In this document: positions 2,776-29,519 of the stretch, piece after piece
Layout: every line of letters starts with the position of its first letter
Position numbering within the stretch: position 1 is the stretch's first letter
Virus record (IMG/VR): IMGVR_UViG_2778261341_000005
Source: a virus
Lineage: Duplodnaviria; Heunggongvirae; Uroviricota; Caudoviricetes
Length of the DNA stretch: 35,293 nt
Direction: 5' to 3' (one strand)
Translations under genes and position numbers: made by a program
The notes under the pieces: model-generated
Told to the model about the DNA's origin: nothing
Databases searched by the model: none
What the model saw: the letters and a program-made list of their open reading frames with translations, nothing else

Positions 2776-3440
2776 TTACCTTTTACGTCCGTTACGTGCA
2801 ACGGATGACGTGGCTGTTTTTCCTTCCCCTTCGCCATCCTTTTTCGGAGCAGTTGTGCAAAAGTGTGCAAAAGTGATTTTTGCTGCCACTCCCCGCCAGG
2901 CCGCGCCAGTTCTGGCTTTCCTGATTTTTTCGTTTTCGTCGTCGGATCCTTTTTCAGATCTTCGATCGTGACGTAATTTTAAAAATCTCTTGTTATTCAG
3001 TGCATTAAATTTTTTCGGGATCCTCAGAAAGCCGGAGTTTTTGCACACTTTTGCAAAACCTTGCACAAAGTGCAAAACCATTCAGAAGGGAAAACCTCAG
3101 TAATGGCGCGCCCTGGCGGGGTGTTTTGCACCCATTTCGATTTGCAAAATTTATCGTACACAAATACCGGAGGCGTGTGCGGGGTAGCGCCGATTACGTC
3201 ACTTTACGCGTTACGTCGCCCCCGAAAATTTCCGGCCATTTGCGGCGATTCTGGGGCGCAGAAATCGTTTTCTGATGTCAGGGGATCGAATCGGGCCGGC
3301 GGGGTTATCTCTTCGTTACGTGGCGTTACGTGACGTTTTACGCGGGGATTACGTGGGGCGTTTCGTCCATCTTTTTTTCTGCTGCGGGTGGTTTTTTCGT
3401 GGTGGGTGATGTCCGGTGATGAATATTTTTTATTGTCGTG
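2776..3440. promoter_or_regulatory. non-coding block with operator-like and iteron-like repeat arrays (function unknown; possible att or regulatory region)
   Basis: No convincing ORF. Inverted copies of tgcaaaagtgtgcaaaa at ~2861-2884 and ~3040-3060 flank an AT-rich GATC-containing spacer; palindrome TTGCACaaaGTGCAA at 3061-3075; further TTGCA half-sites at ~3124 and ~3141. Direct (c)gTTACGTg repeats cluster at 2786-2806, 3193-3220 and 3314-3356. Confidence 0.35.
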
Positions 3441-3446
3441 GGAATA

Positions 3447-3476
3447 AAAAAGGCCACATTGCGCGGCCTGTTAAAA
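3447..3476 (-). terminator. intrinsic terminator at the end of the late/tail operon
   Basis: Minus-strand ggccgcgcaatgtggcc hairpin followed by ttttttatt, immediately after the stop of the 557-aa gene. Confidence 0.55.
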
Positions 3477-3483
3477 TGAATAA

Positions 3484-5157
3484 CTATTCGATTATTGGTG
3501 AATATTTATTTTTAAGCTGGCGGCACTCCTGAGCGACCTGGCTGAACTGTGCGGCCTGCGGAGACGTGCCCGTTTTGGGGTGGGTATGTGATGCTGTAAT
3601 ATCTGCCAGCTCTTCCACCACATCGGCAAGGTCCGTCAGCATGGTCAGTACATTAATGCCCTCGTTTCCCAGCTTCACCGTATCGCCAACCAGCTTCTGC
3701 GCCAGCGCAATACTGTGACGGACGCCCTTAATCTTTTCGGTAAGGCTGCCGCCCACGGTGTCCTGGGTGTCGCCTTCCACGTCGCGCTCACAGGTACCGG
3801 CAACCACCATCATGTGCCCGCCCGTGCTGATGCTGTAGTTCTCTTCAGTGATATGGGTGACCGCGCCAGCCTGAAGCGTGGATACGCCCAGGACGGTGGT
3901 TGTGTCGGTTGCCTGTATGGTGGTCTCCCGGCTGGTCAGGCTCCGCTTTTCCTCGTCTGCACTCACCACGCGCTCGCGTGATGTCTCCTGTATCCGCTGG
4001 TCTGTCTGGCGCTCCCAGTCTCCGGCGACCGTCACGCGCTGCGATACGCCGTCGCGCTGTTGCTGCAACTGCTCGCCCGGCTTCACGTCGGGCAGATTGT
4101 GGCCCTCTGCCATTATCTGGCGGATGAAGGGCTTATCCGCCCGGCCTTCCACAAATCCCACTTCCACCAGGGTTCCGGGCGGCGGGAACTGGAACATGCC
4201 GGACTCACTGCCCGCCATGGGAACGGGGAGGGGAACGGCGTTATAAACGGGCGTATCCGCTGCCGGGTTGCCGTTCTCGTCAAGCAGCTGGAGATTCACC
4301 GCGTAGCGGGGTCTGAACGGGTCGGCAATATTGCCCGCGCTGACGGCTTCGGTCGGCGCCTCAACACGTGCCAGTTTGGGCAGGTGAAGCCCTGATGCCA
4401 GTTCAGGGAAGGCCTTTTCAGCCTGGCGACGGAAAGGGGACTTCTGGAGGGGGGCGCCGGTGGCTTTATTGCGTGGTGTCCACGTGATGGTCATGTTGTC
4501 ATCTTCCAGCATGACCATCGTCAGGCGCTGACCGTTCACCTCCACACCCGGTCGCAGCGTCGGAATCATCGGGAGGGTCATACTGTGCCCGCCCGTTGAT
4601 GCCTGGCTGAACTCGTGCGGGATGGTGACGGGGCGACCGGAAAACATCCCCTGCGCGGCAGCAGCGGCCATAATGCCGCCGTCCGGTAACGGATGCCAGA
4701 TGTAATCCGGTACGGAGAAAATACGCCCCAGACTGGCCAGCAGTTCGTAGCCCGTGCCGCTGTGTGTGAAATGCGGAACGGGTCTGTCAGTGTAAGCCGC
4801 GTTGTCCGGCAGGATGATTTCCAGCCCGCTGGCCTCACTCAGCCACTGTGTGACCGTGCGCATTGTCGGGTGCTGAAATGAACAGGGGAAGGGGTGATCA
4901 AGGATCCCCGCCATTTCACGAATCAGAAGCCGCACCGAGCCGTTTTCAGCGGGCTGGCTGCGTTCAACGTATCCGGTAAACCAGCGCACCAGGTCGTTTC
5001 CGTATCCGATATCGAGACGAACGGGGCGCCCGGTGTAGTTCTGCTCTGTTCTGGCCGTGATAAATCCGCGTCCGCACGCGTTCAGCTCAAGCATGACGGA
5101 ACAACTGACCAGCTGAATGGTGTCGTTACCCAGTAACAGACGTTTAGTGGGGTTCAT
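3484..5157 (-). CDS. baseplate hub / central spike protein (gpV-like OB-fold; possibly a gpD-gpV, VgrG-like fusion)
   Basis: 557 aa; mid-protein segment VPLPVPMAGSESGMFQFPPPGTLVEVGFVEGRADKPFI resembles the gp5/gpV/VgrG OB-fold motif; C-terminal SHTHP near the tip (His-x-His apex as in spike proteins); last gene of the tail operon. Confidence 0.5.
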   Translation of the reverse strand: MNPTKRLLLGNDTIQLVSCSVMLELNACGRGFITARTEQNYTGRPVRLDIGYGNDLVRWFTGYVERSQPAENGSVRLLIREMAGILDHPFPCSFQHPTMRTVTQWLSEASGLEIILPDNAAYTDRPVPHFTHSGTGYELLASLGRIFSVPDYIWHPLPDGGIMAAAAAQGMFSGRPVTIPHEFSQASTGGHSMTLPMIPTLRPGVEVNGQRLTMVMLEDDNMTITWTPRNKATGAPLQKSPFRRQAEKAFPELASGLHLPKLARVEAPTEAVSAGNIADPFRPRYAVNLQLLDENGNPAADTPVYNAVPLPVPMAGSESGMFQFPPPGTLVEVGFVEGRADKPFIRQIMAEGHNLPDVKPGEQLQQQRDGVSQRVTVAGDWERQTDQRIQETSRERVVSADEEKRSLTSRETTIQATDTTTVLGVSTLQAGAVTHITEENYSISTGGHMMVVAGTCERDVEGDTQDTVGGSLTEKIKGVRHSIALAQKLVGDTVKLGNEGINVLTMLTDLADVVEELADITASHTHPKTGTSPQAAQFSQVAQECRQLKNKYSPIIE

Positions 5158-21162: not shown

Positions 21163-21308
21163 TATGGTCTCTTTTACGTGAAAATCTGAAGAAACTGCGG
21201 TGAGTGTCGGGATTTTTACGGCAGGGGGCTACTGACTTAATTCGGTTGCTTTCGGATAACACGGAATAGCCGAACACAGCCGAAATTCTCTGCCTGAATG
21301 CGGACCGG
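21163..21308. promoter_or_regulatory. divergent late promoter region between O and P operons (putative)
   Basis: Only intergenic space between the divergently transcribed head operons; no clean TGT-N12-ACA Ogr-type dyad could be confirmed. Confidence 0.35.
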
Positions 21309-23132
21309 ATGCGCCGCCATAATGGGCGCATGGCTAAATATTCTGACGAAATTAAAGAGGCGGCCCGCTCGCTTTATCTGAAGCGGTGGCATCCCCGGGA
21401 TATTGCGGCGGAGCTCTGTATTCCGCCGCGCACGGTTTACCACTGGTGTGATGTGGGGCAGTGGGCCGCCCTGCTGCCCGCTGAATCCGTTGAGGAGGTG
21501 ATCGCCCGGCGTATTGATGTGCTGACCGGGCGCGAGGGCAAGACGGAGTGCGAACTTGCCGAACTGCGCGAGCTTATCGCACAGCACGTGAAGATTATCG
21601 CCCAGAAAAACAAACACGCTGAAAGGATGGCGGAAATTGCCGCCACGCGTCCGGCAGTGTGCGACGACGGTGTGGCGGCGACCAGCGGCGGGGGTGAAGG
21701 GAAAAAGCGGCGCTACCGGAAAAACGACGTTTCCGGGCTGACTGCTGAAATGCTGGATGCATGGGCGCGTAAAAATCTTTATGCCTACCAGCTGCACTGC
21801 CGCGAGAACCGGTACCGTGAGTGGCGTTTCATTCTCAAGAGTCGCCAGATAGGCATGACCTGGTATTTTGCATGGGAGGCGTTCGAAGATGCGGTGGTGA
21901 CCGGTGATAACCAGATATTCTTTTCTGCGTCACGGGTTCAGGCGGAAATCTTCCGCGAATATATTATTAACTTCGCCCTGCAGTTCGGGATCACGCTCAC
22001 GGGTAAGCATATCCGTTTAAGCAATGGCGCAATGCTGCGTTTCCTGTCCACCAATGCCAGTACCGCCCAGGGATTTAACGGCCACCTTTACGGCGATGAG
22101 GTGTTCTGGATCCCAAAATTCACGCGACTGCATGAAGTGGCCTCGGCAATGGCAACCCACGACAAATACCGAACGACGTACTTTTCCACGCCCAGCGCCA
22201 AAACCCACCAGGCTTATCTGGTGTGGAACGGTGACGAGTGGCGCGGCGATGATCCGGCGCGTCGTGCGGTTGAGTTTCCGAAAGAAAGTGCGATGCGTGT
22301 GGGGTGCGAATGTCCGGACGGGATCTGGCGCTACATTATCCGTCTGGAAGAGGCGGTGGCGGGTGGCCTGTCCGCGCGGGTCAATATTGAACGTATCAGG
22401 AATCGCTATAACCCGACCACCTACGCGATGCTGTACGGCTGCGAGTTTGTTGACAGCAAGGATGCGGTATTTAAGTTCTCCGAACTGGTCAGGTGCGAGG
22501 TGGAGATGGAGACGTGGGGGGACTACGACCCCACCGCAGCACGTCCGTTCGGCAATCGTGAGGTGTGGGCGGGCTTTGACCCGTCAAGGTCCGGGGATAA
22601 TTCCACGTTCGTGATTGTGGCTCCGCCGCTTCATAAGGGCGAACGTTTCCGGGTGCTCGCCGTCTGGCAGTGGCAGGGATTTAATTTCAGCTGGCAGGCC
22701 GAACAGATCCGCGAACTGATGCAGCGCTTTAACATTACCTATATCGGCATCGATATTACCGGCATCGGGAAAGGGGTGTTTGATATCGTCAGTCGCTTTG
22801 CGCCGCGTGAGGCTAACGCCATTCTTTACAGCGTGGAGAGCAAAAACCGCCTGGTGATGAAGATGATAGACGTGGTGGCCCATAAGCGTATCGAGTGGGC
22901 GAAAGATGCCATTGATGAGGCCAGCCGTGAACGCACGGAGATCCCCGCGTCGTTTATGGCCATACGCCGCACCACCACAAAAAGCGGTAACGCGCTGACG
23001 TTCGTGGCGGAACGGTCAGATGTTACGGGGCATGCGGATGTGTTTTTTGCCATTTCGCACGCCGTGATTAATGAGCCTGTTGATTATGACTATGAGCGCC
23101 CGTCCACATGGGCCTTCGGGAAAGCCGCATGA
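21309..23132 (+). CDS. terminase large (ATPase) subunit (gpP-like); start may be the ATG at 21330
   Basis: 607 aa; position and size as P2 P; stop overlaps the portal start (ATGA). Confidence 0.8.
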   Translation: MRRHNGRMAKYSDEIKEAARSLYLKRWHPRDIAAELCIPPRTVYHWCDVGQWAALLPAESVEEVIARRIDVLTGREGKTECELAELRELIAQHVKIIAQKNKHAERMAEIAATRPAVCDDGVAATSGGGEGKKRRYRKNDVSGLTAEMLDAWARKNLYAYQLHCRENRYREWRFILKSRQIGMTWYFAWEAFEDAVVTGDNQIFFSASRVQAEIFREYIINFALQFGITLTGKHIRLSNGAMLRFLSTNASTAQGFNGHLYGDEVFWIPKFTRLHEVASAMATHDKYRTTYFSTPSAKTHQAYLVWNGDEWRGDDPARRAVEFPKESAMRVGCECPDGIWRYIIRLEEAVAGGLSARVNIERIRNRYNPTTYAMLYGCEFVDSKDAVFKFSELVRCEVEMETWGDYDPTAARPFGNREVWAGFDPSRSGDNSTFVIVAPPLHKGERFRVLAVWQWQGFNFSWQAEQIRELMQRFNITYIGIDITGIGKGVFDIVSRFAPREANAILYSVESKNRLVMKMIDVVAHKRIEWAKDAIDEASRERTEIPASFMAIRRTTTKSGNALTFVAERSDVTGHADVFFAISHAVINEPVDYDYERPSTWAFGKAA

Positions 23133-24181
23133 GCAAGAAACGCAGAAACAAAACGTCACGCGTGACGAAAAAAGCATTCACGCCTGCACGTGGCAGCACA
23201 ATCACCTTCGGTCAGCCGGAACCGGTACTGACCACCGGCACGGATTACCACAACATCTGGTATGACAACGAATATAACCACTGGCAGCTGCCGATTAACC
23301 GTCTGGCACTGGCGCAGCTCCCGAACCTTAACGCCCAGCACGGTGGGGTACTGTATGCCCGTCGTAACATGGTGGCGGGGGGCTATACCGGTGGTGGTCT
23401 CACAACGGACCAGATGGAACAGGCGGTGTTTGACTACCTGTTGTTCGGCGATCTCGCTCTGCTCAAGGTGCGTAACGTATTCGGCGACGTCGTGGCACTT
23501 GAGCCGCTTCCGTCGCTGTATCTCCGGCGCCGCAAGACCGGCGAGTTTGTGGTGCTTCAGGAAGGGCCCGCGCTGGTCTATGTGCCGGAAGATATTATCT
23601 TTCTGCGGATGTATGATCCGCGCCAGCAAATTTACGGCCTGCCGGACTATATCGGAGGCATCCATTCGGCGCTGCTGAACAGTGAGGCCACCCTTTTTCG
23701 TCGTCGTTACTACAACAACGGGGCGCATATGGGGTTCCTGCTGTATACCAATGATCCCGGAATTACCACGGAGATGGAGGATGAGATCCGCGAGAAGGTG
23801 GCGGAGTCCAAGGGACTGGGAAATTTCCGCAATCTGTACATCAATATCCCTAAAGGGGCACCGGACGGGGTGAAAATTATCCCGATTGGTGAGGTGAGCG
23901 CCAAGGATGAATTTTCAAACATCAAGGGGATCAGTGCCCAGGATGTGTTTACAGCACACCGTTTTCCTGCCGGGCTTGCGGGTATTATCCCAACAAACGG
24001 AGCCACCATCCCCAACCCGGAGACGACGCGTGAAACGTACCGCAAGGATGAGGTGATACCGCTTCAGCGTAAAATCATGAATGCCGTGAACAGCGATCCC
24101 GATATACCGGAACACCTTCACCTCCGTTTTGATGCAGACGCCGGGCATGTGGCGGAAGAAAAAGTGGTGCCGGTCGGGTAA
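23129..24181 (+). CDS. portal protein (gpQ-like)
   Basis: ATLFRRRYYNNGAH and GLGNFRNLYINIPKGAPDGVKIIPIGEVSAKDEFSNIKGISAQD match P2 Q blocks; start ATG 23129-23131 overlaps the P stop. Confidence 0.9.
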   Translation: MSKKRRNKTSRVTKKAFTPARGSTITFGQPEPVLTTGTDYHNIWYDNEYNHWQLPINRLALAQLPNLNAQHGGVLYARRNMVAGGYTGGGLTTDQMEQAVFDYLLFGDLALLKVRNVFGDVVALEPLPSLYLRRRKTGEFVVLQEGPALVYVPEDIIFLRMYDPRQQIYGLPDYIGGIHSALLNSEATLFRRRYYNNGAHMGFLLYTNDPGITTEMEDEIREKVAESKGLGNFRNLYINIPKGAPDGVKIIPIGEVSAKDEFSNIKGISAQDVFTAHRFPAGLAGIIPTNGATIPNPETTRETYRKDEVIPLQRKIMNAVNSDPDIPEHLHLRFDADAGHVAEEKVVPVG

Positions 24182-24218
24182 AATGTCCTCCCCGGGATAC
24201 ATGTTATCGGGAGGTAAG

Positions 24219-24482
24219 ATGCGGATTTTTAAAGCCCGGTGTCCGGACTGTGGCGCACCTGCTGTCATCCGGAAGACAGACTGGAAAACCCCTGAACTTG
24301 CGGATCTGTACTGTGCATGCAGTGATGTCGAATGCGGGCATACCTTCGTCTGTACGATGACCTTTTCCCACACACTCAGTCCCGGTGCCCGCTCCGGTCG
24401 CAATCTGGTGAAGTTCCTGGTGGATACCATGCGGCCGGAAGATCGCCGGTATGCGCTTGAACTTCTGTCGCGGCATTCCTGA
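24219..24482 (+). CDS. Ogr/Delta-family zinc-finger late transcription activator
   Basis: 87 aa; C-x2-C-x22-C-x4-C (Cys8, Cys11, Cys34, Cys39); GGAGG Shine-Dalgarno upstream of ATG 24219. Confidence 0.8.
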   Translation: MRIFKARCPDCGAPAVIRKTDWKTPELADLYCACSDVECGHTFVCTMTFSHTLSPGARSGRNLVKFLVDTMRPEDRRYALELLSRHS

Positions 24483-24499
24483 CGCGCTTCGCTTGTCTG

Positions 24500-24542
24500 C
24501 TGCTTCACCGGGGCAAAAAGAATTTTTGCCCCGGTGAAGCAG
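24500..24542. terminator. perfect 20-bp-arm palindrome (3-nt loop) between convergent genes; putative bidirectional terminator
   Basis: ctgcttcaccggggcaaaaa-gaa-tttttgccccggtgaagcag; no flanking U-tract, so terminator function is an inference. Confidence 0.4.
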
Positions 24543-24544
24543 CT

Positions 24545-25108
24545 TCATGAAAAATCTGGTACTGAATACAGTGGTATAACCTGAAATCCGTTACACTTCC
24601 AGGACTGCGCTATATCTGGTGACTGCGTGATGGCGGGTAACGGGATTCTGTCATTACAGGTCACCCATGCCTTTGGCTCAGAGGTCAGGATCATTAACGC
24701 AATGCGGTAACTTTGTAGCCTGGCCTCATCATCCTCTGAAAGCCCGAACGGGATATCTGATTTTACCTCATCCATCTGTTCGATTCTCTTCCCTAAAAAT
24801 ACCGCGAGGAAGTTTCTGCTCTCCTGGCATAAGGCCATTTCCGGTATTGTGTACAGTGATTCAACATGTCGGCCTGCATGGTTCCAGGCTTTCACAGCGA
24901 CATCGTGTCGTGTAATGTCGAAAGAAAGGCTTTCTTTGCCCGGAGTGGGTGATCTCCATGCTACCGCCTTTGCGGTAAGTGCCTCCAGTGCAATACGGTG
25001 TACGCATAAGAGCATGAGGGTGTCATCGTCAGGAATCGCCAGTGTGTTTATTTTTTTCAAGCTGATCAATTTCATGGAGGTTATATTTTTTAGTTGTCTT
25101 CTTTTCAT
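24545..25108 (-). CDS. hypothetical protein (187 aa), lower-GC cargo gene
   Basis: Start placed at ATG 25106-25108 with AGGA Shine-Dalgarno (track ORF extends to 25240 over the upstream small gene); no motif recognised. Confidence 0.45.
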   Translation of the reverse strand: MKRRQLKNITSMKLISLKKINTLAIPDDDTLMLLCVHRIALEALTAKAVAWRSPTPGKESLSFDITRHDVAVKAWNHAGRHVESLYTIPEMALCQESRNFLAVFLGKRIEQMDEVKSDIPFGLSEDDEARLQSYRIALMILTSEPKAWVTCNDRIPLPAITQSPDIAQSWKCNGFQVIPLYSVPDFS

Positions 25109-25125
25109 ACGTTTTTTCCTTTCAG

Positions 25126-25290
25126 TCACGAGAGCAACCAGATAACCGCAACGGTTGCCGCATAAATTCTGGCGATAAAGCCCGGTGTGAAGTGGCGAAA
25201 CGGGTTTTCCCACGTCAGGAATGCCATTAAAGCAATCCATGCAATGGTAAAAATCAGCGCGCCCTTAACGGCGATAAACAGTTCGTTCAT
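25126..25290 (-). CDS. small membrane protein (54 aa, two predicted TM helices)
   Basis: AAGGAG 8 nt upstream of ATG 25288-25290; product MNELFIAVKGALIFTIAWIALMAFLTWENPFRHFTPGFIARIYAATVAVIWLLS; below track threshold. Confidence 0.4.
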   Translation of the reverse strand: MNELFIAVKGALIFTIAWIALMAFLTWENPFRHFTPGFIARIYAATVAVIWLLS

Positions 25291-25364
25291 TGTGGTGTTC
25301 TCCTTTGTTTATCGGGTGAATGAATTTCGTTGCTGTGAGAAAAATCAGGCGTGCCAGCGCAGCC

Positions 25365-25553
25365 TTACTGCTGACGGCGTTCCCGGAGTTCGGTCAGTGC
25401 TGCAAGTAAATTCTCCCACCACGTTTCTTCCACGACCGGATTTTGTCGTGAAAGCAACTGCTGCGCCGACTCAATCATCTTCTTCAGGTCTTTGTCGCTG
25501 ATCCTCCTGGTGTCGTTCATGGTGCGCTCCTTTAGTTGGCTGTTTCTGGTCAT
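25365..25553 (-). CDS. hypothetical small protein (62 aa or shorter)
   Basis: ORF abutting the stop of the 138-aa gene; charged and helical; no motif. Confidence 0.3.
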   Translation of the reverse strand: MTRNSQLKERTMNDTRRISDKDLKKMIESAQQLLSRQNPVVEETWWENLLAALTELRERRQQ

Positions 25554-25555
25554 GT

Positions 25556-25972
25556 TTATGGTCTTTGTTGTCTGCGTGATTGTCTGCTGGCGGTTGAATT
25601 CACATAGCGGGCAATTGCTGCTTTGCGGTTAATCAATGCCAGTGTTCTGGTCAGTTCTGCGTTGTGTTTGTGTGCCTGCTCTTCGTGGTACTGCCGCATG
25701 ATTTTTCCGGCAGGCGTGAGCGGCTCCGGCTCCCCGGGCGGACGGCGCGGACGAACGGCGACAAGCCAGCTGCGGTTAGTGCTGTCCGGTCGTCCGTTGA
25801 GTATGTCGGTGATGATGGTCGTGGTGGTTCTGTCGGGGCTGACGACCGTGATTTCCAGCTCGTCGCCCGGTTGTGGTCTCGTGGCAATGTTGTTCAGGGG
25901 CAGTAAGGGCGTGCGCTGGCGCATCATTTCGTCAAATTGCCGGTGCTGCATGCTGCAATAAAAGCGGGTCAT
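25556..25972 (-). CDS. hypothetical protein (138 aa) downstream of A
   Basis: Start overlaps the A stop (translational coupling). Confidence 0.45.
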   Translation of the reverse strand: MTRFYCSMQHRQFDEMMRQRTPLLPLNNIATRPQPGDELEITVVSPDRTTTTIITDILNGRPDSTNRSWLVAVRPRRPPGEPEPLTPAGKIMRQYHEEQAHKHNAELTRTLALINRKAAIARYVNSTASRQSRRQQRP

Positions 25973-28497
25973 TGTGGCGCCTCCGTATTCGGTGCGGGGG
26001 TGATATCAATGCGGCGGGTGCTGTCATTCCAGTACGCGGTGCGTCCGTCAGCCAGGCGAACGCGGGCACCGTGACGGACGGAAACGACGGCGCTTTCATG
26101 CAGATGCACGCCCAGCGCATTGAGCTCGCGGGTGATTTGTGCGGTGATGTGTGGTTCAGAGGTCAGAGCGACACTCACGCGAACGCCGCCAGCGGGCGCA
26201 CTGATGCCGCCGTTTTTCACGGTTTCCGTGTCAGGTGGCAGGTTTTTCAGCTGCCTGGTGAGTTGTTTTCGCTCTGTGGGGGTCAGTGACCTTAACCATT
26301 CACCCAAATCACCTTCCGGCAGGGTAAGTCGCTGCTCCCTGCGTCCGTCCGGCTGCCTTTCTGGCGGGTCGTTTATGGTCAGATTCTGGTCAGGGGGACA
26401 GTTATTGCCACGAGTCCAAGGTGCGGCAAAGCCGCACTCAACGTCAAAACCCTCGTCCGTGCGGTCTTCGTTTTCCGGCTTACGTCTGACCAGTTTCCAG
26501 GTGTCCGGGTGGGTGCATATGGTGTAGCGCTCCCCGAGTGACGGGGCGCGGACGCCGTAAATGCGTTGCGGGAATTCGCCGTAGTCGTTGGCCTCTTCGG
26601 CAGTTTCGTATGCGGTGCGGACCAGGTACGTGTTGCGGGGAATGAGCACACCACCCTGGCGGGTGATATATGTGGCAAAACATCCCACGTCGGCGGCGGC
26701 CAGTATGGCGTCAATGTCGTCATGGTCCAGACGCTGCGGGACAGCCGGGTTACGGGCCATCTGCCCGGCAAGGCGGCGGAGTTCTCGCCATACCTGGCGG
26801 GGAGGGATACCGAAGAACTGGAACTGGCGGATGCGGTGAAGGGCCGCCCAGCCGATGGCGTTCTCCACGGTTTCGGCCATGGTTTTGCCTGATTCCTTAT
26901 CGACGTAAGGTTTGCCGGTTTTCGGGTCATTCCCCATGAAGGCGCTGGCGTCCAGGTTCTTACCGATATAGGTCGCGATATAGCTCGCCGGTGTGCCTTT
27001 TGCCGGGTCGATTTTTTCGCATTTAAAACGCGGGGAGATATCATCACCCAGCTCTGCGCGGTCCTCCCTGATGGCGGCGTTGCGCATGATTTCAGTGATA
27101 CGGGCTTCGTTTTCCGGGCTGGTGAATACCAGCATGTGCCAGTGCGGTGTACCGTCGTGGTGGGGCTCCACGGTGCGCACGCCGTACCAGCCCAGCCCGG
27201 CCTTGTTGATGGCCCTGCGGACGGCGGCGAAAAAGCGGTAAACCAGATAATCACTGGCATCACGTACCGTTGCTCCGCAGTATTTCGGGTTCAGGCTGCC
27301 GTCATCGTTCACGCTGTGAAAACGGGAAGGGGCTGTGACGGTGACGAAAAACGCCAGGTCGCCGCGTGCTTCGGCGACCTGCTCCATTCCCCGGACGCAG
27401 GCCATCATCTCGTTACGGCGGTTACGCGGATTAGAGAGACCTGCCCAGTAGATATCCTCAAGGCTGAACCGTTCTCCCTCTTCGTTCTCGATGTCCCAGG
27501 CCTTCAGAAAATCGCGGGTGCGCTGGCGTTTTTCGCGCCAGTCCAGTAACGCTTCATGGCTGATATATACCGATGTCTTACGTGACACCAGACCTGCGGC
27601 GCGTAACAGCTCTTCACGCCAGATGTCCCGGAGGTGTCTTAACTGACTGTTCCACCATGTCGCACAGGAAAGGCGCATGACCGCACCCGGCACCTGTTCC
27701 GGGTCGGGGGCGGTGCGGCGGTCGGGTCTGATTTCCAGCGACGGCCAGCAGGGTGGCGTGATACCCAGTTTTAACGCCATGTGTGCCAGTGGCTGGTAGG
27801 TCAGTAACCAGGTGAACAGGTCATCGTCACCCCTGCCGGTCTTTTCGATGACCTCATCACATGCGCGCTCCAGTGCGGCGGAAAACGCGGTGGCGGTCAG
27901 GGTGGCAAGGCGCTGGATTTCGTCACGGCTCAGCTGCGGCAGCATAAGCAGTTCATCCAGCCGTTCGCGGGCGGCGGTGGCCTTAAAGGCCGGGGTGGCA
28001 AAGCGTTCATTCACACGGGCGATACGTTTCAGGCGGGCACGCAGCCCGTGACGAACGAAGTTATCCGCCGCGTATGCGCTGTTGTTCTTAAGCCCTTCCC
28101 GGCGTGCGCTCTCCTGTTTGCGGCTCAGGCGTGCCAGGTCCCGGATGAGCGGACCGGCAAGAAACGGCGGCAGGGCGCGCAGCTCTGCCATGGCTTCAGA
28201 TACCAGCGTGGGTGGATTTTCGCGTTTGTGCCGCGCCAGTTTTTCCAGCCTGATCCGACGCTCTTCGTCGTGGTGAAGATGCGAATTAATTCGCTTGCCT
28301 TCGTCTGTGTTTGTCAGGAAGTCGACGGTCTCTTCATCCAGTCTTGCATCAATGCGAATGTCTTCGTTGATGTAGCTCTGAATGGCCTGGCGCAATGCGG
28401 TTGGTTGCGCTCTGCCGAATGTTTCAGGATCGATAACCGGTAGCGGGGCGTTCCACGGGTACGCCAGTTGTGCGTTATGGTCGCTCATGCGTCGCAC
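25969..28497 (-). CDS. replication initiation protein A (HUH rolling-circle endonuclease, P2 gpA family)
   Basis: 842 aa; HUH motif (HHDGTPHWHMLVF) and twin-tyrosine motif (YIATYIGKN). Confidence 0.9.
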   Translation of the reverse strand: MRRMSDHNAQLAYPWNAPLPVIDPETFGRAQPTALRQAIQSYINEDIRIDARLDEETVDFLTNTDEGKRINSHLHHDEERRIRLEKLARHKRENPPTLVSEAMAELRALPPFLAGPLIRDLARLSRKQESARREGLKNNSAYAADNFVRHGLRARLKRIARVNERFATPAFKATAARERLDELLMLPQLSRDEIQRLATLTATAFSAALERACDEVIEKTGRGDDDLFTWLLTYQPLAHMALKLGITPPCWPSLEIRPDRRTAPDPEQVPGAVMRLSCATWWNSQLRHLRDIWREELLRAAGLVSRKTSVYISHEALLDWREKRQRTRDFLKAWDIENEEGERFSLEDIYWAGLSNPRNRRNEMMACVRGMEQVAEARGDLAFFVTVTAPSRFHSVNDDGSLNPKYCGATVRDASDYLVYRFFAAVRRAINKAGLGWYGVRTVEPHHDGTPHWHMLVFTSPENEARITEIMRNAAIREDRAELGDDISPRFKCEKIDPAKGTPASYIATYIGKNLDASAFMGNDPKTGKPYVDKESGKTMAETVENAIGWAALHRIRQFQFFGIPPRQVWRELRRLAGQMARNPAVPQRLDHDDIDAILAAADVGCFATYITRQGGVLIPRNTYLVRTAYETAEEANDYGEFPQRIYGVRAPSLGERYTICTHPDTWKLVRRKPENEDRTDEGFDVECGFAAPWTRGNNCPPDQNLTINDPPERQPDGRREQRLTLPEGDLGEWLRSLTPTERKQLTRQLKNLPPDTETVKNGGISAPAGGVRVSVALTSEPHITAQITRELNALGVHLHESAVVSVRHGARVRLADGRTAYWNDSTRRIDITPAPNTEAPQ

Positions 28498-29197: not shown

Positions 29198-29376
29198 GGT
29201 GTTTGGCCTCTTGTAGTAAGTTCTGAAAACTCACCATCCAGAGCTGCGAAACAGTGGGTGGCGAGACGTACGAGGTTCGCAGTACCGGCTACAAGAGATC
29301 CCGGCCCGACCGAAGTCGGCCCCGTACGCCCCGCCATAATTCTGACGCGAAAAAGACGTGGCGATACAGTACGCAC

Positions 29377-29397
29377 AAAAAAACCGCTGGCGCGGTT
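29377..29397 (-). terminator. intrinsic terminator inside the early region (putative)
   Basis: Plus strand aaaaaaa + accgctggcgcggt: read on the minus strand a GC hairpin followed by T7. Confidence 0.4.
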
Positions 29398-29519
29398 GTG
29401 CGCTCTTGTAGTCGGCAGGCTGCGAAACCCGGCACCCGTTTTATGAGGTGCAGCGGGAATGTAACCTGACTGATTGCGGCATGGCAAGCGGTTTTTTTGT
29501 GTGTGCATGTTCTGGTTTC

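Follow-up and report, generated by a model that had tools for sequence, protein, structure and literature searches.

Portal-adjacent ogr, a putative gene-end hairpin and a predicted att-proximal cos site in a mosaic P2-family prophage

When a P2-family element carries the gene for its late activator directly behind the portal gene, followed by a perfect palindrome, three questions arise: has the gene moved, what does the palindrome do, and where would the DNA be cut for packaging? These questions are raised by positions 24,219 to 24,542 of IMG/VR virus record IMGVR_UViG_2778261341_000005 (Caudoviricetes), whose full 35,293-nt stretch was analysed and is referred to below as the window. An earlier note made from the letters alone took the gene to be relocated and left the other two questions without a settled answer. 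The answers depend on what kind of element the window is and on which phages it should be compared with.

The window is an E. coli-type prophage sited between serS/hok and dmsA. Its place and its kinship are fixed by the following features.

1-1293, left of the junction: host serS (Pfam).
1493-2779, host DNA left of the junction: hok/gef repeats (tandem-repeat finding and E. coli annotation).
2779..2780, no strand: prophage-host junction, att side (end of the match in E. coli genomes with other prophages).
3484-5157, - strand: last late gene, a baseplate protein in the gpD position, convergent on cos (PHROG 2258, E=1e-241).
21309-23132, + strand: TerL, gpP-like, first gene of the rightward P-Q-ogr unit (Pfam Terminase_6N, Terminase_6C, Terminase_5).
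23108-24181, + strand: portal protein, gpQ-like (Pfam Phage_portal).
25969-28497, - strand: replication endonuclease gpA (Pfam Phage_GPA, E=1.4e-106).

The junction was placed at 2779/2780 because E. coli genomes that carry other prophages at this site match the window only as far as position 2779. The host DNA that abuts it, 3' of serS, is a 473-bp tandem repeat present in 2.7 copies at 94% identity (1493-2779), and E. coli genomes annotate this repeat as two or three Hok/Gef family genes. On the far side, dmsA is the neighbour of the prophage in a near-identical E. coli lysogen, where a search beyond the integrase for an att core repeat gave no clear repeat. The same type of prophage, at 94-99% identity and with the same portal-ogr pair, was found in 12 complete E. 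coli genomes; E. coli O22:H8 strain 154 and the JNEC-KY strains have prophages 95-99% identical to it.

Judged by similarity, the element is a mosaic Peduoviridae (P2-family) prophage that joins late genes of the ESSI-2/SW3/K139 (HP1-like) kind to a P88-like (Xuanwuvirus) early region. TerL is 77% identical to that of SW3, 57% to that of ESSI-2, 47% to that of K139 and only 36% to that of P88; the portal protein gives a similar series (SW3 77%, ESSI-2 62%, K139 48%, P2 35%, P88 32%), and TerS identities back the same lineage for the late module. The late genes are not P88-like, and their order is that of ESSI-2. The stretch that begins at 24477 and runs as far as the integrase, at the right end, is by comparison 82-84% identical to P88-like phages, with gpA at about 82% nucleotide identity.

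Two side observations concern these modules. The N-terminus of TerL (21309-21520, + strand) carries a Terminase_5/HTH domain at residues 14-69, ahead of the ATPase, as in gpP-like proteins. Within the early P88-like region, Rfam matches above the gathering score identify a C4 antisense RNA (29254-29341, - strand, 81 bits) and isrK (29377-29451, - strand, 65.5 bits) near a homologue of the gene called 'derepression protein' in relatives, which, by analogy, suggests a P1/P7-style antisense-RNA immunity or antirepressor circuit.

The gene that raised the question, together with the candidate signals in front of it, is as follows.

24219-24482, + strand: ogr, an Ogr/Delta-family zinc-finger late-gene activator of 87 aa (Pfam PF04606, PHROG 603, cysteine spacing).
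24179-24184, + strand: TAAAAT, a -10-like hexamer 35 nt 5' of the ogr ATG (conserved position in relatives).
24184-24201, + strand: TGT-N12-ACA dyad in the portal-ogr spacer, of doubtful significance (pattern scan).

By its domain match and cysteine pattern, the gene at 24219-24482 is a member of the Ogr/Delta family. The product covers the full 47-position model of PF04606, Ogr_Delta (E=1.4e-15, 57.4 bits against a cut-off of 26.3), and matches PHROG 603, a transcriptional regulator, with E=9e-30. Its cysteines are arranged as C8-x2-C11-x22-C34-x4-C39 and are invariant in an alignment with the SW3, ESSI-2 and K139 homologues, and its length falls within the 70-90 aa or so usual for the family. 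Together these results bear out the C-x2-C-x22-C-x4-C finger on which the earlier note had based its assignment. In a six-frame translation of the window, Ogr-type fingers occur at 24219-24482 only. The protein is 53-61% identical to the SW3 and ESSI-2 homologues and 48% identical to K139 orf13 over 84 aa, and its 30-aa C-terminal extension is common to K139 and ESSI-2. With P2 Ogr, 186 B and P4 Delta it shares the Pfam family, the spacing of the four cysteines and a place at the 3' end of a late operon that is followed by a gene-end hairpin; identity to P2 Ogr is only about 24%.

The gene lies on the same strand as TerL and portal, and a 37-nt spacer separates the portal stop (24181) from the ogr start (24219). 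That it is convergent with the genes downstream of A was also correctly described, as the ORFs in 24545-25972 and gpA are all on the minus strand. The contrast drawn with P2 and 186 is likewise sound. In P2 and in P88-like prophages the ogr gene lies by attP, beyond the tail genes, and even at the same serS/hok site in other E. coli the P88-like or P2-like prophages have an ogr that adjoins att instead.

What does not hold is the view that the gene was relocated as a peculiarity of this element. A tblastn search with the Ogr protein of the window had matches in 130 phage records, and in SW3/SI7, ESSI-2, K139 and phiO18P the ogr homologue follows terminase and portal, convergent in SW3/SI7, ESSI-2 and K139 on the genes downstream of the replication gene. 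For K139 and the Salinivibrio prophage Smhb1 an Ogr homologue between portal and replication gene is a published layout (PMC8537503). Within Peduoviridae, an ogr gene between portal and replication gene marks the HP1/K139-type layout, and the window has it there.

The likeness to K139 is close. In K139 and Smhb1, as in the window, the Ogr gene (orf13 of K139) is downstream of terminase and portal, on their strand and convergent on what follows, and K139 has cos and attP together at the other side of the genome, as we propose for the window. K139 differs in having an extra small gene, orf14, between portal and orf13, in an annotated terminator that overlaps the end of orf13 with no P88-type palindrome, and in an early region that, unlike that of the window, is unrelated to P88. 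The Cronobacter phage ESSI-2 (Seongnamvirus) and the Salmonella phages SW3, SW5 and SI7 (Irrigatiovirus) share with the window the late order, the succession of portal, ogr and a convergent replication region, and, beside the last tail gene, the terminus motif GCGGGTGCGGTGTAG with its flanking architecture. They have early regions and integrases of their own, and the attP of ESSI-2 resembles the 3' end of tmRNA. In the HP1-like lineage the norm is that ogr ends the terminase-portal unit and that cos lies by attP, so nothing has moved within the element. We conclude that the portal-adjacent ogr is an ordinary trait of the K139-type, HP1-like branch and is displaced relative to P2 only.

The spacer in front of ogr offers hints of how the gene might be read. 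In the window, SW3 and ESSI-2 the TAAAAT hexamer stands about 35-40 nt 5' of the ogr start in spacers that are otherwise divergent, which hints at a possible weak promoter of its own. A consensus promoter scan of the plus strand gave no full sigma-70 match for an ogr promoter. The TGT-N12-ACA dyad of the spacer is kept in L003, a 95%-identical E. coli relative. This activator pattern, which late promoters under Ogr/Delta control would carry at about -55, is not enriched in the window, with 8 matches against 7.3 expected by chance, and it does not occur in the divergent scaffold/terminase promoter region (21163-21308). The activator site of Ogr proteins of the K139/ESSI-2 type may differ from TGT-N12-ACA.

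In P2, ogr has a promoter of its own and is also transcribed when the FETUD operon is read through. By analogy, the Ogr protein of the window would be a zinc-finger activator that switches on the late operons, and, as a member of its family, it would do so by contact with the RNA polymerase alpha subunit; it would first be made from a weak promoter of its own within the end of the portal gene and would later be supplied by read-through of the late P-Q transcript.

If the late module is of the HP1-like kind, the cohesive end may be sought where HP1-like phages have it, and in those phages cos adjoins attP (PMC2771037). The interval between the host junction and the last late gene contains the following candidates.

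3173-3187, + strand: predicted cos core GCGTGTGCGGGGTAG (homology to the ESSI-2, SW5 and K139 termini).
2852-2914 and 3039-3124, no strand: candidate terminase-binding region with a composite inverted repeat, TGCAAAA repeats and GATCC motifs.

Within the window, GCGKGTGCGGKGTAG is matched exactly at one place only, 3173-3187. The evidence for a terminus comes from the points at which database records are opened and from conservation, and it is on these that the cos assignment is based. In the linear ESSI-2 record both ends carry an identical 15-nt sequence, GCGGGTGCGGTGTAG, which falls between the last tail gene and the attP side. For SW5, the opening point of the record is within the sequence homologous to 3173-3187; in a 30-kb genome an arbitrary opening point would have a chance of about 1 in 2000 of falling there. 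In K139 the homologous sequence, GGCGGGTGTAG, is 17 nt away from the opening point of the record, and counted from the record start its attP lies at 511-534 and its int gene at 744-1781. A 21-nt pattern, GGCGKGTGCGGKGTAGYGCCG, recovers more than 120 viral contigs among the matches listed; the same baseplate gene has its convergent 3' end near the motif in 102 of 120 listed contigs, mostly 160-300 bp away. The flanks of the core are conserved across 113 unique homologous sequences.

In the window, measured from the core, the host junction is 393 bp away and the last late gene (3484-5157) has its stop at a distance of 297 bp. The GCGKGTGCGGKGTAG core, the conserved flank and the convergence on the last tail gene are those of an ESSI-2-type cos, and the pairing of a putative terminus motif at 3173-3187 with a host junction at 2779/2780 is the HP1/K139-type arrangement of PMC2771037, as far as homology can tell. 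From homology we therefore predict that terminase would cut at a cos at about 3173-3187, in the interval bounded by the att junction and the last tail gene.

The surroundings of the core carry repeats of several kinds. Some 50-320 bp upstream of it is a composite inverted repeat made of TGCAAAA repeats and the pair CCCCGCCAGGCCGCGCCAG / TGGCGCGCCCTGGCGGGG, with the same architecture in ESSI-2; the ESSI-2 record has the same inverted GGCCGCGCCAG pair and GATCC motifs upstream of its terminus. TGCA-type repeats also stand by the cos regions of P88 and P2 themselves. Octamers like GTTACGTG with at most one mismatch are frequent here: 5 of the 25 in the window fall in 2780-3483 (at 2791, 3210, 3315, 3325 and 3348), an interval that makes up 2% of it. 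They flank the cos core on either side and may serve as arm sites for the integrase or as sites for terminase.

Two further sequence matches were considered and rejected. Read as a P2-type cos, 3172-3190 gives a gapped 15/19 match with two indels, no better than shuffled sequence in a 35-kb scan. The segment 2884-2902 on the minus strand (GGCCTGGCGGGGAGTGGCA) had first been chosen for its agreement, at 12 of the first 13 bases, with the 186 cos; it is actually one arm of the inverted repeat, and ESSI-2 has this repeat upstream of its terminus.

The earlier note had found no P2/186 cohesive end between A and Q. This is correct and extends to the whole window, where the P2 cos 19-mer GGCGAGGCGGGGAAAGCAC, whose place in P2/186-type phages is between the portal and the cargo/old locus, has no match at three or fewer mismatches and the best approximate matches to the P2/186 cos have 5 mismatches, all inside genes. 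The further statement that cos is not identifiable is superseded by the homologue of the ESSI-2/SW5/K139 terminus at 3173-3187, outside the interval then searched. The site was missed because the P2/186 sequence was sought, and in the wrong place.

With cos predicted on the far side of the late genes, there remains the palindrome behind ogr, at the junction of the two convergent units. Its position, the block that contains it and the genes beyond it are as follows.

24477-24544, no strand: 68-bp block common with P88-like (Xuanwuvirus) phages, running from the ogr stop codon, at the left edge of the P88-like early region (similarity).
24499-24543, no strand: perfect 21+3+21 palindrome at the convergent-unit junction (inverted-repeat finding and RNA folding).
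24545-25108, - strand: variable cargo gene, about 187 aa from an MKRRQL start, low GC (ORF list).
25126-25290, - strand: small hydrophobic protein of 54 aa, cargo (ORF; 'hypothetical' in the relative L003).
25365-25972, - strand: two conserved small genes downstream of gpA, of 62 aa and 138 aa (PHROG 14672, E=2.5e-30, and PHROG 14984, E=7e-66, both of unknown function).

The arms (24499-24519 and 24523-24543) are 21 nt each, 100% complementary and separated by a 3-nt loop. The earlier description of a perfect palindrome between convergent gene ends thus stands, except for its size: it had been measured as 20+3+20 (24500-24542), one pair short. The RNA of each strand has a predicted folding energy of about -48 kcal/mol (z = -6.2 and -7.0), and none of 200 shuffled sequences was as stable. 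The minus-strand ORF stops at 24545, two bases past the palindrome, and from there to gpA all genes are on the minus strand. The reported lack of a flanking U-tract was verified on both strands: no T-run follows the hairpin, the plus strand continuing TTCATGAAAAAT and the minus strand AGACAAGCGAAG. A sequence scan gave only a chance-level partial match, and Rfam had no meaningful match to the hairpin, whether at the gathering threshold or with E values allowed up to 1. Of the features of a canonical intrinsic terminator, the stable G+C-rich stem at an operon end is present and the U run is absent; because the U run is missing, we class it not as a canonical terminator but as a gene-end hairpin, which may function in the manner of one.

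The palindrome belongs to a sequence that is widespread. The 68-bp block is 93% identical to the sequence straight after the portal stop in P88 and its relatives, and among 5426 complete E. coli genomes about 1100, or about a fifth, have a match to it. The dominant form among 125 copies is a quasi-palindrome with an 11-bp upper stem (CGGGGCA(T/A)AAA / TTT(A/T)TGCCCCG), a 6x6 internal loop and a 4-bp lower stem (GCTG/CAGC). Perfect 21-bp arms occur in the window and in only a handful of the other copies. In the perfect copies the right arm departs from the common form exactly where needed to mirror the left arm, including at the A:T variant of the window itself. From this pattern, the perfect symmetry is most simply explained as a template-switch 'correction' of a quasi-palindrome.

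In every context examined (P88, L012, and L003 and L004 with their different cargo) the block stands between convergent gene ends. Behind the portal of P88-like phages is a hairpin like that of the window in its 68-bp block, its place at the portal-side edge of the gpQ-gpA hotspot and its convergent ends. In P88 the block comes straight after the portal stop, is a quasi-palindrome and has cos a few hundred bp beyond; in the window it comes after ogr instead, its arms match perfectly and the predicted cos is 21 kb from the hairpin. Other phages fill the same position by other means: SW3 and ESSI-2 have canonical hairpin-plus-T-run terminators after ogr, and P2 has an annotated terminator, tQ, after the portal gene. 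The latter is the positional analogue of the window hairpin, although tQ has a T-run and the hairpin has none.

The proximity of the block to cos in P88 gives some substance to the suggestion that the palindrome is part of, or accessory to, the packaging site, since in P88-like phages it lies about 350-400 bp from the opening of the linear P88_4B11 record, between portal and cargo, in a P2-type cos neighbourhood. We consider this very improbable. SW3 and ESSI-2, whose terminase type the window shares, have no palindrome and do have a conserved terminus motif by the end of the tail genes, and the window has that motif at 3173-3187. Furthermore, the P88 cos-proximal sequence 3' of the hairpin is absent from the window, as a BLAST comparison of the P88 portal-to-cos interval with the window returned the hairpin block only. 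Because SW3 and ESSI-2, with the same terminase type and cos, are without the palindrome, and P88-like phages that have it carry a TerL only 36% identical, we do not take the hairpin to be a packaging part, and this disfavours the earlier note's proposal on that point. In its distribution the hairpin goes with the P88-type early/hotspot module and not with that of terminase and cos.

That hotspot is variable in content. Between gpQ and gpA, P2-family elements have a defence and cargo hotspot described by Rousset et al. (PMC9122126), and the cargo of the window occupies this locus. The cargo genes (24545-25290) have a GC content of 0.44-0.50 against 0.55-0.62 in the flanks, gave no match with Pfam and PADLOC, and stand where P88 has cos-proximal sequence after the hairpin. 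At this locus a 95%-identical E. coli prophage encodes a YafO-family toxin, along with one other gene. In a P88-like prophage of E. coli O111:H8 strain 8E (L013, 1900-2575), an inserted minus-strand gene of 174 aa with its own canonical terminator separates the portal stop from the hairpin block; cargo can thus be gained on the portal side as well.

A rival reading is that the palindrome works at the level of DNA: it would be bound by a protein as a symmetric site, or it would be a recombination landmark that marks the limit of the cargo hotspot and serves in the exchange of cargo and modules. The block does lie behind varied upstream contexts (the portal end in P88, ogr in the window, and in L013 the inserted minus-strand gene); the mosaic junction of the window falls at the block, as does the point where the similarity of E. 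coli relatives stops; and the block borders the gpQ-gpA hotspot (PMC9122126). However, the changes in the stem preserve pairing and not sequence (TA to AT, GC to AT), the centres of the arms are unpaired and different in most copies, so that beyond the upper stem there is no conserved symmetric recognition sequence, and junctions at gene-end hairpins are expected anyway, as these are neutral places at which recombinants survive. On balance we hold a DNA-level site to be unlikely. Its stronger form, in which the 68-bp block would be a dedicated P2-family landmark for exchanging cargo genes and whole late and early modules, with arms repeatedly 'perfected' by template switching, is in our estimate a doubtful proposition; if true, the block would here join an Irrigatiovirus-like late module with an att-proximal cos to a Xuanwuvirus-like early module.

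The hairpin might also have no function in the hybrid and be a hitch-hiking remnant of the P88-type portal-cos interval, brought along with the early module, its symmetry a neutral template-switch mutation. Perfect arms are indeed rare and scattered among the copies, the central stem is dispensable in most of them, and the ESSI-2-type late unit works elsewhere with ordinary terminators. Against this, essentially all 125 copies keep the upper stem and the lower 4 bp, as do about 1100 E. coli genomes, and the place of these stems with respect to gene ends is constant. Moreover, if the hairpin is set aside, the P-Q-ogr unit has no other recognisable stop signal before it would run antisense into the cargo genes. 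A mere remnant is therefore improbable.

Most likely, the palindrome is a gene-end RNA hairpin, a terminator or a 3'-end stabiliser, between convergent operons. Two stem pairs are changed on both sides with pairing kept (TA to AT and GC to AT), and in essentially every copy the upper stem is paired; the sample consists of close relatives, and the search pattern had fixed part of the left arm, so these paired changes lend modest support to selection on pairing. The hairpin would act on both convergent RNAs, as a terminator or as a barrier to 3' exonucleases, and would keep transcription of the P-Q-ogr unit out of the cargo/early unit and vice versa. As it has no U-tract, termination may rely on Rho or on the unusually long stem.

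Taken together, we regard it as probable that the window is a mosaic prophage with ogr in its normal HP1-like place, cos at about 3173-3187 and a palindrome that is a conserved RNA-level gene-end hairpin with no part in packaging. Two elements of this answer are already known: the portal-adjacent ogr is a lineage trait, and the palindrome of the window is one form of a gene-end hairpin that is very common. With P2 as the sole annotation template, such a layout would be called aberrant and cos would be missed. The GGCGKGTGCGGKGTAGYGCCG pattern offers a usable cos signature for P2-like enterobacterial prophages of the ESSI-2/Irrigatiovirus type, mostly about 160-300 bp from the last baseplate gene. 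For the P2 family, the element is a clear case of modules exchanged between two Peduoviridae lineages that differ in cos position, and a clean natural hybrid in which a P88-type early, immunity and integration module is combined with a packaging module whose predicted cos is at the other side of the genome.
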